A DNA stretch of 64,000 bases from Heptranchias perlo. Its lineage: Eukaryota. Both the position numbers and the translations under genes were made by a program. Positions 30,901 to 51,133 of this stretch are shown one piece after another. How positions within the stretch are numbered: the stretch's first letter is position 1; each line of letters starts with the position of its first letter. The stretch lies in NCBI RefSeq assembly GCF_035084215.1, contig NC_090356.1:15438001-15502000 (forward strand), in the 5' to 3' direction. The notes beneath the pieces were generated by a model, which ran no database searches, had not been told where the DNA came from, and saw nothing but the letters and a program-made list of their open reading frames with translations.

Positions 30901-33900
30901 GAGGCTGTAGGTTTGTTCTTGTGGTGTCTGATTCTGGGGCTGTGAGGTTTCTATGCCATCTACACTCTTTTCAACAGGTTCCACCTGCAACTATGCACTA
31001 AATACAAAGGCATTTTGTCATTGCTGCTCATTGTGTAAACCTTGCAGCATGTTGTTATTTCAACTTGAGCTGAAAATCAGAGCTGAGAATGAATCGAATA
31101 TTTAAACAGAAATGAGGGGAGGACAAAGCCAATGCAACAAACAGGCCTTAATTGGCCGTAACAAGTTTGATACCAGCAAACAAAAGTGGAGAAATGAACT
31201 TTTGATAGACATCTAAATACTAAATCTAGCACAGCCTCTGTTCTAATACCTTGTTTCCCTGTGTTAAGAGGTCATTCATTGCCAGCATGAAATTGTTTTC
31301 ATCCATTCTATTTATTATCCCTGAGCTGCCCACTCTACACTATGGGGTATTGAAATCCATAATGATTAGTGTATTAGGATTGTCTGCTACTCTATATGTG
31401 CTGTTCACATTGAGCTGGCATGTAATGATTCATAATGTTTGTTGACATTAGCAAAAAATATCAATATCCACGCTATCATTTTTTCAATACATTTTCAACT
31501 AACTCCAATTTTAAATGTTGTACGCATGCTAAACCTAAAATAGCATGGAAATATTAATTTATCTTTTCTCTTGCTAAGCTCAAATAATTTACCTTTTCTT
31601 CTGCTAAACTCAGTTTATTATGACAGTACTACTCTCAACAGCACAGGAAGTCGAAATGTGGGGGAAAGCCCAAGGTGTGTAGTGTAGGGCCACCACTAAG
31701 GTTGAATAGAGTAGGAGAAAACATGAGGAAAATCCTCAAATAGTCAGGCAACACCAAACTTGGGTTCTAAAAGACCTGTAGATTGGAGGAGGAAGGGTTG
31801 ACCAAGGGAGGTAAGGAGTTCCACAGTTTTGAGTTCCTGGGAAAGAATATTACCAGAGCAACACAATAAATCATAATTCTGGCATAATGATTATGCAAGA
31901 TCCAGGAGGAAGAGGATGTAAAATGGAATTTTTGGCATTTAGGAGAAAGTCAGTAGAACAATTAACCTAATTTATTCTCCTTATAAATATGTAGTAAATC
32001 ATTACACTACATATGCTAATGAAGTCTCCAAAAGCTTAATGCATGTTATTAATATTTTTTCTTCTGCATTTGACTTGTTTCTCATTCTGCATTTCATTAT
32101 GAAACAAATAGAAACTTGCAGAGTGCAAATAACAGGAAACAGAGCAAAGAAAATGAAACATGCATTTCAGCTCTTTGTCGGTTTCCAGTCGGCAGCCCGA
32201 GATCATCATCTCCAGGTGCTGTTCTCAGATGAGATTGTGGTCTAACGCTTATTCTGAAGACAATGGGTGCTGTCCGCCCCCAGAAATAAAAACGTAGGTT
32301 TTATGCATCACTCGTTCTGAGTCACTCAAAACTTCAAAAGGCCTTAAATTCTTGTATGATAACAAAGCAGGTCCAATGTGGATTGTGATTGTAAAATGAA
32401 AACCATGTGGGGATTTGTAATCTGTATTCAGTATTGTCTGTGAGCACTAAGCAAGTATAAGGTTAGTGTGTAAACTTAGTAAATCTCAATATGGTGCACG
32501 ACTGTCCTTTAGTGTGTAGTGCTGCATAGGTTACATTTGGAACTGAAAGTTGACCTGATTTTAGCAAACAGTACTATTAGTCTAAAATGCTTCCTTTAAG
32601 TGATTAAATATTTAATTAAGCATTAGGCCTGATTAATCCTTAATGAAAACTTTTCATGTTTATTGTTCTCATTGTCAGTGGAAAATCATTAATCAAAGAA
32701 TCCCTGTTAAATACTTTCAATATCAATCCCTGTTACATACTTTCAATACTCCCTCAATCTATCTAGTGTGAAAAAAAAATCATGAAGTAAATCTATCACA
32801 AAGGCAATGCTGACAAACTCATTGCTATTTTCCATATTCATGGAGCTACTAAGCAGACAAACAGCTACAGGAACACCACCAGCAGCTCTAAAGGAAGCCT
32901 CTTCATATCTGCTTATTTTTCCAGCTTTGAATGATGGGGATGCATGAAAGCCAGGAAAGTTCAGTACCAGGTGGGCATTGCTGTTCTCCCAACCAGACTT
33001 GCATTTTCCCAGCTTGGATGATTCCTGTCATCATCCATGGCTGGAGAGGATGCTCAGGGTCCTGATCATCTGTATAGATACTTTTGTTGGGTTGCAGTTG
33101 CATGGATTCCAGGTCCTCTCTGGGACCTCAACGAAGTGAGAGTCTGGTCAATGAATGTGCGCATCACAGCCCATTCTATCTTAATCGGATATACACACAA
33201 TTTCCAGCAAGGATCGCTAGATAGGATCAGGAGCAGGAACCCTGGCTGATCCTCCCCTATGCCATCAACCTAGCCTATGGCACTGAGGCCAATTGTAGCA
33301 GACAGACCAGTAATCAAACTATTTGGACCTTTTGTTCTAAATGGCTCAGTACCACAGCATGGGAGCATGTACTCATTTTGTTTTTGCTTTAAGCAATAAA
33401 TATACCAAATTTCACAGATCCAAGCTTTATTGTTATGGACTATGGCACAAGTAAACACACCAACTCCTGACATTAAATTTAATGGAGTATTGAAGGAACA
33501 GCTATAAATTCTGAAAGAAAGGTTAAATTCATTTTTCTTGCACAAAATAGACCTTCAAAGAAATTTGCGTAGTCACACTGTATCCATATGAATTCATTGA
33601 GGTCCAAAACAAAAAGTAGATTCTCATAAGTTCATTCAGAAAAATGCTAATAGATTCCTTCATTTCCAGGATTAGAAATGTTCAGATTTCCAGGATTAGA
33701 AATTTTCAGAAAGTCCCCTTTCCAGGTGTTATATTACCAGTCAAAAAATGCCTCAAATTTAAAATTCTCATCCTCATGTTCAAATCCCTCTATGGCTTCA
33801 CCTCTCTCGCCTCTCCCTACCTCTGTAACCTCCTCCAACCCTCCGAGAACTCAGTTCCTCCAACTATGGCCTGTTACACTCTTCCTTTGCCCCATTATTG

Positions 33901-35189: not shown

Positions 35190-35299
35190 TTAGTTTGAGA
35201 CCCATACGGCTGAAGTCATCAAACCGTTGAAAACCAAAGATTTAAGAAAGAGGATTCGCAAGGAGAATATAATGAGTGGAAGTGAACTTGGTACCTCAT
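35190..35299 (-). CDS. TCR-like gene: transmembrane/cytoplasmic exon (TCR alpha/delta type)
   Basis: tcaaag| (Y)EVPSSLPLIIFSLRILFLKSLVFNGLMTSAVWVSN*; R and K five residues apart plus FN..MT...W as in TCR-alpha [20 protein letters not shown]; splice donor 1 nt after TAA. Confidence 0.9.
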
Positions 35300-36787
35300 C
35301 TTTGATAGAAAGGAAACAAAATGCATTAGTTTAATATTCAGAACATTAAAACCATCCTTGTGAAAAATATGTAGAACAGAAGTGTTAGGGACCAGTTACA
35401 CTACAGTTTCTGCATGGATTTTTCCCGATTTTCATCACCCCACCATTGGCGGCCGTGCATTCAGCTGACTAGGCCCTAAGCACTGGAATTCCCTCCCTAA
35501 ACCTCTCTGCCTCTCTACTTCATTCTCTCCTCCTGTAAGATGCTCCTTTAAACCTACCTCTTTGACCAAGCTTTTGGTCACCTGTCCCAATATCTCCTTA
35601 TGTGGCTTGGTGTTAAATTTTGTGAAGTGCCTTGGGACGCTTTACTATGTTAAAGGTGCTATATAAATATTGTTGTTGGATACTTAGGTATAATTTCACA
35701 CCAGAAGGGTTTCAGACAGTTACAGTACAACTGTATGAACAGTCAGTATGAAACCAACTTTAAAAATGAAAGTTAAAAAGCTTCCAAGGAATCGGCCAAA
35801 TACTATCAAAGAGCCCACAGGGGACCCCTCTTCACTAACTTAAAAAACTTCAACAGTATCCTGAGAGGAACTCTGCATGTCTTTATCTTGTTGCGGGACT
35901 GCCAATGTAACTTGACCCCACTAGCTCGCTCCACTCTAAGAGCACTGTTACACTACAGCTACCAGTAGCTCACATTAAACAGGCTCAGGATATATTGCCA
36001 GCACCAAGTATCCATCTAGCCAGCAGAAACCTGGATGTGTCGTGCATAGTTCTGCTCAATGTTCTTCAAATACCAGTTGAATTTTAACATTAAAAGGTTT
36101 GCTGACTGCCGCTTTGTGTTGACAAAAAGTTCCAGAATAATTAGCCTATTGAGCAGGCACTGTTCTAAAGTAAAAATGAGTCATTCTATTTACATTTTTT
36201 GTGTGTATAAGTGGCACAACGGCCAAAGCTGGAGACTGTATTAAGAATAAACCCTGAATTTGACTCCATAGGTTGCTGAAAGGCCTGATGAAATTGTATT
36301 AAGATTTGGTACCAACCAGTGAAAGAAGTTCAGCAATGAGAAAAGAACATTGGCACCATTGGACTTCTGGTAGATCCTTAATTTCTCGAATTCTTTGTGT
36401 AGCCCTTTGAGTTAATTTGCAATTTTCACTTTATCAAACTACAGTATTCAAGATTCTATTATTTATAAGCTGCTATGAGGCGAACATTAATGATTTTAAA
36501 TAGATTTTGTTGTTTAAAATATGAACCTGTACGTACCATCATCAGAATCCACTTGGAGACATTGGTTTTGCAGCTTTTTGGCTGTAAGAATTTACAAAGA
36601 AAGTAATAATGATCAAAACGTGGTTCACTAGTGAGCAAAGAATTGTCCAAACTTTCGTTTTCTATTTCAGGAAACCGTCCAAAGTTTGAAAAATAACATG
36701 CATTAACGAAGAGATGTATTAAAATCAAGTTCTTTCTTAATTTGGAGGACGAGCCTTAAACTGCGTTCCCAACACATTCCCGTTTAC

Positions 36788-37178: not shown

Positions 37179-37499
37179 CTTTCTCTTTTGACATGATTGA
37201 TGTAGTTCTCATGGAGTCATGCATTTCCCCTTGGCAGATATATGAGTTTCCATCGTCCCAGCTTTTTAACGAGGTCGTCATTTGACTGACGAGGCTGTAA
37301 TCGCCATCCTCCCCCACTGCCGGACCAAACTGCAGCGTCTTGCCTTCGATTAACGAATGGCTAGATGCGTTCCATGTGACAACGAGCGAATCCGGGTGAA
37401 AAGCTGTCAACAAACAGCCAAGGGTTGCACTTTCCCCTCCCTGAATAGCCCCTGCAGAGGGCGGGAGGATGAACACCGAAGGGGCAGTTTCCGTGTGAT
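37179..37499 (-). CDS. TCR-like gene: constant Ig C1-domain exon
   Basis: ttttcag| (N)HTETAPSVFILPPS..SATLGCLLTAFHPDSLVVTWNAS..YSLVSQMTTSLKSWDDGNSYICQGEMHDSMRTTSIMSKEK-G |gttggt; C-W-C intact; phase 1/1. Confidence 0.93.
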
Positions 37500-41449: not shown

Positions 41450-42682
41450 ACAACACAAAGCCCAACATAGATTTAAACACAAAGCTCAACATAGACTTCA
41501 ATACAGAGCCCAACATAGATTTAAACACAGAGCTCCACATAGACTTCAACAGAGCTCAACATAGACTTCAACACAGAGCTCCACATAGACTTCAACAGAG
41601 CTCAACATAGACTTCAACAGAGCTCAACATAGACTTCAACACAGAGCTCAACATGGACTTCAACAGAGCTCAACACAGAGCCCAACATAGATTTAAACAC
41701 AGAGCCCAACATAGATTTAAACACAGAGCCCAACATAGATTTAAACACAGAGCTCAACATAGATTTAAACACAGAGCTCAACATAGACTTCAACACAGAG
41801 CTCAACATAGACTTCAACAGAGCTCAACATAGACTTCAACACAGAGCTCAACATAGACTTCAACACAGAGCTCAACATAGACTTCAACAGAGCTCAACAT
41901 AGACTTCAACACAGAGCTCAACATAGACTTCAACACAGAGCTCAACATAGACTTCAACACAGAGCTCAACATAGACTTCAACACAGAGCTCAACATAGAC
42001 TTCAACAGAGCTCAACATAGACTTCAACACAGAGCTCAACATAGACTTCAACACAGAGCTCAACATAGACTTCAACACAGAGCTCAACATAGACTTCAAC
42101 AGAGCTCAACATAGACTTCAACACAGAGCTCAACATGGACTTCAACAGAGCTCAACATAGACTTCAACACAGAGCTCAACACAGAGCCCAACATAGATTT
42201 AAACACAGAGCTCAACATAGACTTCAACACAGAGCTAAACATAGATTTAAACACAAAGCTCAACATAGACTTCAATACAGAGCTCAACATAGATTTAAAC
42301 ACAGAGCCCAACAAAAAGCTCAACATAGACTTCAACACAGAGCTAAACATAGATTTAAAGACAGAGCTCAACACAGAGCCCAACATAGATTTAAACATAG
42401 ACTTCAACACAGAGCCCAACATAGACTTCAACATAGACTTCAACATAGAGCTCAACATAGATTTAAACATAGAGCTCAACATAGATTTAAACATAGAGCT
42501 CAACATAGACTTCAACATAGAGCTCAACATAGATTTAAACATAGAGCTCAACATAGACTTCAACATAGAGCTCAACATAGATTTAAACATAGAGCTCAAC
42601 ATAGACTTCAACATAGAGCTCAACATAGATTTAAACATAGAGCTCAACATAGACTTCAACACAGAGCTCAACATAGACTTCA
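41450..42682. repeat. Minisatellite of 12-bp monomers forming ~24-bp (and 22-bp) units, in the J-C intron
   Basis: Consensus AACACAGAGCTC-AACATAGACTTC with variants AACATAGATTTA and AACACAGAGCCC; about 44 AGCT motifs by manual count. Confidence 0.97.
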
Positions 42683-42928
42683 CAGCAACGCCCGCTCAAT
42701 ATATCATTAAAGAAACAGGCGGATAGAAATTGGTTATTTTATTTCGTAAATTGGGTTGAGACCATTTTCCTGTTTGTGATATTCTTATTTGAAATTGTAT
42801 TTGTGTATATACAAAATTGAATTGAAATTGAATTTTCTTGAAACAATCCGTTTCCACACCCGGCTGATTGGTTTTGGAAATTTATCTAGAGTGTCTTGAA
42901 TATCTGGATGACTTTTTTTGAAGCGTTT

Positions 42929-43851: not shown

Positions 43852-43894
43852 TTGCCACGACTTTCAGGGGGGTTCCATTTCCAAAGATAAGCTT
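43852..43894 (-). CDS. TCR-like gene: functional J segment
   Basis: KLIFGNGTPLKVVA-A|GTAAGT; FGXG motif; phase-1 donor in frame with the C exon. Confidence 0.92.
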
Positions 43895-43933
43895 CACGGT
43901 GTCACGAACAGCTCGCTGTCACACACCAAACGT
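43895..43933 (+). other. J1 5' RSS (heptamer CACGGTG; weak nonamer near 23-bp spacer)
   Basis: CACGGTG, 23 nt, ACCAAACGT; heptamer position matches that of the paralogous pseudo-J (9 nt before the F/I-G codons). Confidence 0.55.
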
Positions 43934-44121
43934 TCCATTGAAAGAGCCGAGGCGAGGACCAAGCGCCCAATCCCACTCCACAATTATCACCGATATCCCG
44001 ATAGTGAGGCAGAAAGAAAAAAAAACTGGATCAAGATGACGGCTACGGTAACGTTGTACTTGGAAAGTTAGGTGGCACTTCCACAAAAGCTCTCCTCTTG
44101 CCACGGGGGACAATCTCCCGT

Positions 44122-44149
44122 TTAATTTGACACGGTTTATTACACTGTG
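44122..44149 (-). other. D 3' RSS (perfect heptamer; weak nonamer, best fit at 12-bp spacer)
   Basis: CACAGTG, 12 nt, TCAAATTAA; the 22/23 position gives GGGAGATTG, which does not resemble a nonamer. Confidence 0.55.
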
Positions 44150-44166
44150 CCTGCTGTTGCCCCCCG
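44150..44166 (-). other. TCR-like gene: D segment CGGGGGGCAACAGCAGG
   Basis: 17 nt, G-rich, open in all three frames (RGATA / GGQQQ / GGNSR), bracketed by two heptamers. Confidence 0.88.
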
Positions 44167-44194
44167 CACATTGTTTTATCTTTGTTCAAAAACC
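44167..44194 (+). other. D 5' RSS (12-bp spacer)
   Basis: CACATTG, 12 nt, TCAAAAACC (8/9 consensus); 12/23-compatible with the V RSS. Confidence 0.9.
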
Positions 44195-44562
44195 CAGTGC
44201 GACACACCGAGTACAGACTGCATTGAACGCCGATTTTCGTAAGAATCAAAAATGTTAAGCTTTTACAGACCCCTCACTACATGTTACTTCCCTCCTCCAT
44301 TTTTTGATGTTTCTCTGATGGCTCGTCCCTCTGTATTCTTGGAGCACTCTGCAATCTCATTAATACCTTACCCATGACACCGGTCCGTGTGGAGATGACT
44401 GGTATACACTTTGATTGATGATGGACACTTTGTGGCGTTATTTTCGGGGTTACTTAAAAAAATTAAAAGGCTTAAAATCCACTTGAGTTGTTAAAATGCT
44501 TGTCACGTTCTCGATAACTGATGCTGCAGTCACACTATCGCCAGCCTCGCCTTGGGTGCGAG

Positions 44563-50569: not shown

Positions 50570-50607
50570 TGATTTTGTATGAACACCCGCCTGCTTGCAC
50601 CGCTGTG
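50570..50607 (-). other. V 3' recombination signal sequence (22-bp spacer)
   Basis: CACAGCG, 22 nt, ACAAAATCA (7/9 match to ACAAAAACC). Confidence 0.85.
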
Positions 50608-50910
50608 CGAAACTAGCAGCGCAGAAATACACGGCGCTGTCTCCCAGTTCGAGCGAGGTTATAATCAAGTTGCAGTTAGAAGCGTCTGGTCGAGAAACAT
50701 TGAACCTTGCGGGAATTGCCGAAGTAGTTTGCTTCTTTACTCCATATGCTTGTTGATTATACAAGATGAAATTCAAGCGTTCTCCTGGAATCTGCTTGTA
50801 CCAGTACATGTATTCCCAGGTACCGCTCTGGGTGCATTTTATTTCCACGTCCTGTCCCACAGTCTCTGTGGCAGAGGGAGATTGTGTGACAGAATTGTCC
50901 GGCGCGGCGC
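50608..50910 (-). CDS. TCR-like gene: V segment (V-beta-like)
   Basis: cctag| GAAPDNSVTQSPSATETVGQDVEIKC..YMYWYKQ..RFNVSRPDASNCNLIITSLELGDSAVYFCAASF; conserved Cys/Trp/Cys of a V-set domain; no stop; RSS follows directly. Confidence 0.93.
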
Positions 50911-51075: not shown

Positions 51076-51133
51076 CTGCCCACGACAGAAAGATGAAGAG
51101 AATCAATCGACTCGGCTGCATCTTCTCAGGCAT
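51076..51133 (-). CDS. TCR-like gene: leader (signal peptide) exon
   Basis: MPEKMQPSRLILFIFLSWA-G|gtgagt; hydrophobic core; phase-1 intron of 165 nt to the V exon. Confidence 0.85.

Follow-up and report, generated by a model that had tools for sequence, protein, structure and literature searches.

A single-copy shark V-D-J-C cassette with a likely V22-12D12-23J signal layout and an alpha/delta-type membrane anchor

A V, a D and a J segment followed by a single C1 domain in the genome of the shark Heptranchias perlo raise the question of how their recombination signals (RSS) are arranged. An immunoglobulin heavy-chain order (V23-12D12-23J), in which use of D would be obligatory, had been proposed in an earlier note in preference to the order of T-cell receptors (V23-12D23-12J). 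The note concerned the same window, i.e. the whole stretch of 64,000 nucleotides analysed here. The explanation which we favour, and consider quite probable, is that of a single-copy shark V-D-J-C cassette which is rearranged and spliced into an alpha/delta-type-anchored chain, with V22-12D12-23J as its likely layout, D as an obligatory element and direct V-J joining barred.

The cassette, its encoded chain and its setting

The window (C35:15438001-15502000) contains one gene of the order L-V-D-J-C1-hinge-TM on its minus strand; its splice sites are canonical and its frames open. The leader exon (51076..51121, minus) begins with the ATG at 51121, ends at a GT donor and matches the start of the basking-shark protein P0001; the V exon (50608..50910, minus) is of the V-set (Pfam E 4e-15) and TCR-V-like. 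The D segment, situated 6.4 kb from V, comprises 17 nt (44150..44166, minus) and is open in three frames, and the 43-nt J segment (43852..43894, minus) carries an FGxG motif with only 9 nt ahead of the Phe codon. A C1-set exon (37179..37499, minus; Pfam E 7e-14) is followed by a connecting-peptide exon with one Cys (36537..36581, minus), which has AG and GT flanks, is in frame and matches P0001. The last exon (35190..35299, minus) encodes the transmembrane (TM) segment and a short tail, with an Arg and a Lys placed five apart and then an Asn and a Thr. Scoring with the RSS models described below revealed no additional D between V and J, and no further V was found in the 40 kb past the window end. 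A 1.2-kb minisatellite with units of ~19-21 nt lies in the J-C intron (window 41450-42690).

Both the exon layout (V, C1, connecting peptide with Cys, TM and short tail) and the TM pair of Arg and Lys are those of TCR alpha, delta and mu chains: in the portion of PMC11754216 consulted, TRA, TRD and TRM are given Arg plus Lys, and TRB and TRG one Lys. Trees were built from the domains of this genome together with P0001, using 25 rows for C1 and, after thinning, 41 of 65 rows for V. The cassette C1 groups only with P0001 (100/99) and with no TCR C domain, while the TRD C domains form their own 100/99 clade, outside of which it falls. The cassette V likewise groups only with P0001 (99/97), and lies weakly within a TRA/D/B group (87/81). 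The C1 domain has a canonical form, with its highest scores against C domains of the Ig type. Its best-scoring paralog is a C domain from a gene in which a V-like exon is accompanied by three C1 exons (L034, L113; C14:59.91 Mb), a layout called UrIg-like here after the consulted part of PMC12227049. Two tandem V-C1 genes (L104, L105; C47:3419456-3427354), unlike Ig or TCR, form a further 100/99 clade. It is likely that the cassette encodes a TCR-type chain additional to the four already known. Its TM charges and the Cys of its hinge predict TCR gamma or beta, which have a single Lys, as the partner chain and signalling through CD3. T cells with such a receptor would combine an invariant V with diversity in CDR3; since there is one V only, diversity is confined to CDR3.

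The V and C1 exons are both single-copy in the 3.25-Gb genome, the best paralogs being 42% and 39% identical, respectively, among 150 scored candidates each. The other receptor loci, whose labels were assigned from segment layout and motifs, lie elsewhere (TRB on contig C1286, TRA/D on C240, TRG on C3, as well as Ig clusters), and the cassette is on C35. A 203-nt copy (95%) of J with its RSS and donor stands alone among repeats on another chromosome (L032, C3:51069601-51069803), with one change in its heptamer.

Two neighbouring genes are presumably PPIH and TAF10, named after peptide motifs, and between TAF10 and the TM exon (window 32100-32260, minus) a further, unnamed gene shows a stretch resembling an exon. 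Trypsin-like genes also adjoin the cassette; in Pfam searches of 32 ORFs of the window and 148 of the 169 flanking ORFs, trypsins and retroelements were the only named families. These trypsin-like neighbours prompted a comparison with a TRB-like neighbourhood, which was rejected: the Eph genes on the chromosome are EPHA2 and EPHB2 (two of the three tested) and a DBH-like gene is absent. At 15.5, 18.3, 18.4 and 34.5 Mb, C35 carries trypsin-like genes beside V, EPHA2 adjoining a CLC gene, and EPHB2, which we take to be paralogs of genes surrounding human TRB. Conceivably, the C35 locus arose from the TRB region by an old duplication, but the alpha/delta-type TM counts against this.

P0001 is the ortholog of the cassette product in the basking shark, identical at 80 of 116 positions in L-V (69%) and at 130 of 172 in J-C-hinge-TM (76%). 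It is named 'immunoglobulin lambda-1 light chain-like' by NCBI, and under such a light-chain label the cassette is easily missed. Protein searches gave no clear ortholog beyond P0001 among the best 150 of 3114 matches in a 50% library, and a metagenome scan for orthologous genomic DNA returned one unrelated chance match only. No description of the locus was found in the literature searched, a coverage outside which some key shark TCR papers lie. The cassette is not mentioned in the sections of PMC12227049 consulted, the account of shark TCR mechanisms in the available part of PMC5931798 is given without it, and the D and J motifs had no match in 11 of the 19 supplements of PMC10322711. The locus thus seems rather likely to be undescribed so far.

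Recombination signals and their spacer classes

A consensus scan of the whole window returned only two strong signals, the V 22-RSS CACAGCG-22-ACAAAATCA (50570..50607, minus; heptamer 50607-50601, nonamer 7/9) and the D 5' 12-RSS CACATTG-12-TCAAAAACC (44167..44194, plus; nonamer 8/9), both of which had been read as clear beforehand. The signal 3' of D, CACAGTG-12-TCAAATTAA (44122..44149, minus), combines a perfect heptamer, as previously noted, with a weak nonamer, and is likely of the 12 type. Its nonamer matches 4/9 positions at spacer 12, 2/9 at 22 and at 23, and 5/9 at 14; spacer 12 is hence the best of the registers considered to be used by RAG (11-13 and 21-24), although the earlier description of it as the only nonamer-like match does not stand. 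The J signal (43895..43933, plus) is likely of the 23 type, with the heptamer CACGGTG (43895-43901) and a nonamer that may be in either of two registers, ACCAAACGT at 23 or ACACCAAAC at 21. Matches of 1/9 at spacer 12, 6/9 at 21, 4/9 at 22 and 5/9 at 23 agree with the former reading of no nonamer at 12 and a weak one near 23. The alternative J signal proposed at that time, CACGAAC-13-ACACCAAAC, is indeed present at 43903..43931 (plus), and is rejected on the evidence presented below.

The 12 and 22/23 options were scored with position-weight models (rather than RIC) trained on 87 12-RSS and 43 22/23-RSS of loci elsewhere in the same genome. In leave-one-out trials all 87 and all 43 were classed correctly, figures that are to be read with the consensus-threshold filter of the training set in mind, which inflates class separation; IgL rows and loci derived from the window were left out of the set. 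Four of four held-out NAR-TCR signals were also classed correctly. For spacer plus nonamer, V scored -16.6 bits as 12 and +7.6 as 22/23, and the D 5' signal +11.3 and -19.8. The D 3' signal scored -1.9 bits as 12 and -18.6 as 22/23, J -17.6 and +2.9, and the alternative J signal -21.8 and -26.0. The D 3' value as 12 falls below the lowest leave-one-out score of a true 12-RSS (-1.1), and it was matched by 3-5% of random sites (3.4% in one estimate), compared with 0.7% for J as 22/23. The IgH-like pair of D 3' and J sums to +0.9 bits, a value equalled by ~0.1-0.2% of random pairs, while the TCR-like pair sums to -36.2 bits, which 74% of random pairs reach; the difference of 37.2 bits (P 0.0017) bears out the layout first proposed. 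Training on TCR signals only led to the same class calls (D 3' -3.3 bits as 12 vs -21.2). The long V spacer and the D 5' 12 signal are those of the IgH type, and the scoring, despite weak nonamers, adds a D 3' 12 and a J 23 signal (P ~0.002). We regard the layout as very probably V22-12D12-23J, not 12D23-12J, as far as the sequence can be scored.

Other loci of the same genome provide a measure for this assignment. The D segments of TRB (2/2) and TRD (1/1) are 12/23, and the best nonamer of TR-type J rows is at 12 in 83 of 86, in accordance with the TCR grammar assumed at the outset. The assumption that IgH D segments are 12/12 with 23 J signals is true of the last D only: in the IgM, IgW and IgNAR clusters the upstream D segments are 12/22-23 and the last is 12/12. 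The JH rows are best at 23 in four of five cases, with nonamers of 5-6/9, about as weak as that of the cassette J. Six NAR-like V segments on C240, each with a second V downstream, are read as NAR-TCR cassettes; five of them are V23-12D12-23J and in the sixth V is fused to D. The contrast between an IgH- and a TCR-type layout therefore holds against TRB and TRD, but not against NAR-TCR. By its scored signals, the cassette grammar is that of the last D of IgH and of NAR-TCR, and so has precedent.

Several features of these loci were observed in passing. The NAR-TCR cassette with the germline V-D fusion (L117:1390-1470) keeps only its D 3' 12-RSS. A complete IgM-type V-D-D-J-C cluster is located among the TRA/D V segments (L055-L056, C240:1051168-1062300), and C240:632278-1478035 contains at least two TRA-type and at least five TRD-type TM exons, C-alpha and C-delta thus being multi-copy. 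TRB consists of two blocks 4 Mb apart (C1286:4.90-4.98 Mb and 8.68-8.95 Mb) with identical C-beta proteins.

With the layout as scored, the V 22 signal would pair with the D 5' 12 signal and the D 3' 12 signal with the J 23 signal, whereas V and J, as a 23/23 pair, would be barred from direct joining by the 12/23 rule. The strong V/D 5' pair may be expected to join more readily than the weak D 3'/J pair, such that D-to-J joining would be the slow step, and inverted D joins would be expected to occur, if rarely.

Junctions in RNA and competing explanations

Of the seven runs listed, four were mapped on V-J and four on D-J, the latter being one (X1) from the same species and three (X2, X4, X5) from a relative ~92% identical in V. 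Junctions were read by hand from the loose ends of assembled contigs, in which rare variants are dropped. V is covered by RNA contigs in all four runs mapped on V-J. In all four mapped on D-J, splicing at 43852 connects J with the C1 exon, which identifies these runs as RNA. The J side of the junction starts at 43895 in X1, at 43894 in X4 and X5, and at 43893 in X2. In X1, a V trimmed by 5 nt is followed by 3 added nt (two of them palindromic to the intact D 5' end), 14 of the 17 D bases, 4-5 added nt and the full J, in frame. In the X5 junction, also in frame, V is followed by 4 bases that match the start of D, 1 different base, 10 bases that match the 3' part of D, 6 added nt and the full J. 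X4 retains an intact J with one palindromic T, adapter ending its upstream side after 12 nt, and in X2 only one letter is visible upstream of J. Both complete junctions are thus in-frame V-D-J joins, and D-less V-J joins number none among these two. An unspliced germline D-J contig in X1 (43866..44542, minus; 677 nt, 0 differences) starts ~375 nt upstream of D, and is read as a sterile germline transcript because the adjoining unique intron bins have zero cover in this run. The cassette is therefore transcribed from upstream of D, cleaved at four heptamers, joined somatically between RSS-flanked V, D and J with N and P additions, and expressed as an in-frame spliced product. Obligatory use of D would follow from the 12/23 rule together with the two complete junctions.

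These observations also bear on the choice of the J heptamer, which the earlier note had left open. If CACGAAC-13 were the signal, of 12 type, ACACCGTG would belong to the J coding sequence, J would attain the more usual TCR length of 17 nt before Phe, and the ACACCGTG codons of the P0001 model would be accounted for. The junctions of all four runs, however, begin J at 43893-43895, which would require trimming of 7-9 nt every time. Bases 43896-43902 are retained in none of the four, so that CACGGTG is the J heptamer and the prediction of transcripts keeping ACACCGTG is not borne out. The CACGAAC heptamer has three of seven consensus bases and a spacer of 13, and scores -0.7 bits, whereas CACGGTG, the heptamer of 8 of 130 other RSS of the genome, scores 10.5; with its nonamer, CACGAAC reaches 1.7 bits, compared with a minimum of 7.4 among true RSS. 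P0001 itself includes codons upstream of J but reads through CACGAAC as well, as a model splice would, and fits splicing between a GT close to the end of V and the AG at 43913-43912. For these two reasons its V-to-J passage is taken as an annotation artefact and not a RAG joint. We consider use of CACGAAC-13 highly improbable. Splicing of V to J in RNA, as in P0001, was also rejected, there being no loose end near 43911 in any of the four runs. The six codons upstream of J (window 43895-43911) translate identically in the basking-shark model, whereby the heptamer, the first spacer bases and the AG acceptor seem conserved. With CACGGTG as the heptamer, a TCR-type 12D23-12J order could still apply had both nonamers decayed, joining then being driven by the heptamers and direct V-J joining allowed. 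This grammar is used by TRB and TRD here, is also described for duck TRD2 and skink TRE in the consulted parts of PMC5278385 and PMC11754216, and would suit the TCR-type TM of the cassette. Yet D 3' as 22/23 and J as 12 score at random level, far below every true RSS, and erasure of both nonamers would have to coincide with chance look-alikes in the opposite registers (P ~0.002). Neither of the two complete junctions lacks D, and we find this account unlikely. An Ig light-chain-like gene or a decaying orphon, with no role in T cells, would agree with the NCBI name of the ortholog, a canonical C1 that scores best against Ig-type C, and weak signals. It is at odds with the presence of a D and of hinge and TM exons, the TM bearing charges of the TCR type, with the intact state of all exons, and with in-frame transcripts in two species and a protein conserved in a third, and appears improbable.

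A further possibility, compatible with the favoured V22-12D12-23J cassette, concerns the origin of D. The ancestral order may have been V23-12D1-23/12D2-12/23J, as in shark IgM and IgW, with the 17-nt D arising from RAG-mediated joining of D1 to D2 in the germline. A contig of the relative (record 6 of X4) matches the flank 5' of D over 102 nt at 92%, including the first 4 D bases. It continues with 3 other bases, which complete a D-like core of 7 nt, and then with a perfect heptamer and a different spacer, with no nonamer at 12. Together with the X5 junction of the same relative, in which those 4 bases and 1 other precede 10 bases of the D 3' part, it fits two D segments in the relative and a germline fusion here. 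Germline joining is known in sharks, according to the part of PMC2193156 consulted, and the V-D fusion in one of the six NAR-TCR cassettes is an instance in this genome. The evidence is nonetheless a single contig of depth 3.2, with 30 of 75 loose letters visible, which could stem from a chimera or else represent a hybrid or open-and-shut joint, and no match to the relative's motif of heptamer and spacer turned up in the window, the receptor loci or the genome. The fusion is possible, but we rather doubt it.

Comparison with known receptor systems

We are nearly evenly divided, leaning slightly against, on the broader reading of the cassette as a fifth shark TCR chain, i.e. a conserved single-V cassette with an alpha/delta anchor, a C1 lineage of its own and IgH grammar, in which two ancestral D segments are fused here. 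If true, it would imply a semi-invariant T-cell lineage and an Ig/TCR intermediate that has been kept, namely a TCR chain in an Ig-style minicluster. As a candidate marker, the cassette would then point to innate-like T cells of the shark that carry a single V and vary in CDR3, and it would allow a natural test of the idea that early receptors were organised as Ig-style clusters.

Among shark receptors, TRA and TRD resemble the cassette in their TM segments (62% identity to a TRA TM, 46-54% to the TRD TMs of the same genome) and in a TRAJ-like J motif. TRA, in contrast, joins V to many 12-RSS J segments without D, and TRD has the order 12D23-12J; each is a multi-segment locus on C240, and their C1 domains are unrelated to that of the cassette in the tree. 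The cassette has none of the single TM Lys, the conserved GGGACAGGGG-type D or the 12D23-12J order of TRB. Duck TRD2, in the available text of PMC5278385, is likewise a single V-D-J-C cluster, of ~16 kb and outside the main locus, which encodes a delta-type chain, but its V is VH-like and its order 12D23-12J, whereas the cassette has a TCR-like V, a likely 12D12-23J order and a C1 that does not group with C-delta. Squamate TRE, as presented in the part of PMC11754216 consulted, is also an additional small TCR locus recognised by genome mining, with 2 V, 1 D, 1 J and 1 C in ~16 kb, yet it is derived from TRB, has a single TM Lys in place of the Arg plus Lys of the cassette chain, and in the skink is 12D23-12J. 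The D segments of platypus TRD are 12/23 in the consulted part of PMC3457774, and nothing on RSS spacers is stated in those of PMC7615758 and PMC2191167. The D-bearing TCR chains compared (TRB, TRD, avian TRD2, squamate TRE and platypus TRD) are thus 12D23-12J, as far as the parts of these sources extend, and in them D can be skipped or stacked.

The shark IgM, IgW and IgNAR miniclusters (PMC12227049, in part) share with the cassette the minicluster layout, a 12/12 last D and a 23 J signal with weak nonamers. They differ in having two to three D segments (the upstream ones 12/22-23), a J of the WGxG type, several C domains and a high copy number, compared with the FGxG J, one C1, TCR-type TM and V-D distance of 6.4 kb of the cassette; the presence of D and TM also separates it from IgL. 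NAR-TCR, as far as it is described in the consulted parts of PMC5931798 and PMC3457774, similarly has one V, D and J and a TCR-type chain end, with V23-12D12-23J in five of six cassettes here. Its V, however, is IgNAR-like and sits atop a supporting V-delta with a 12-RSS J and C-delta, while the present cassette, in one copy on another chromosome, has a TCR-like V joined straight to its own C1, to which J is directly spliced. A membrane-proximal TCR domain and a likely 12D12-23J order in a one-V minicluster would thereby mix the traits of Ig and TCR in the oldest lineage with RAG-based immunity.
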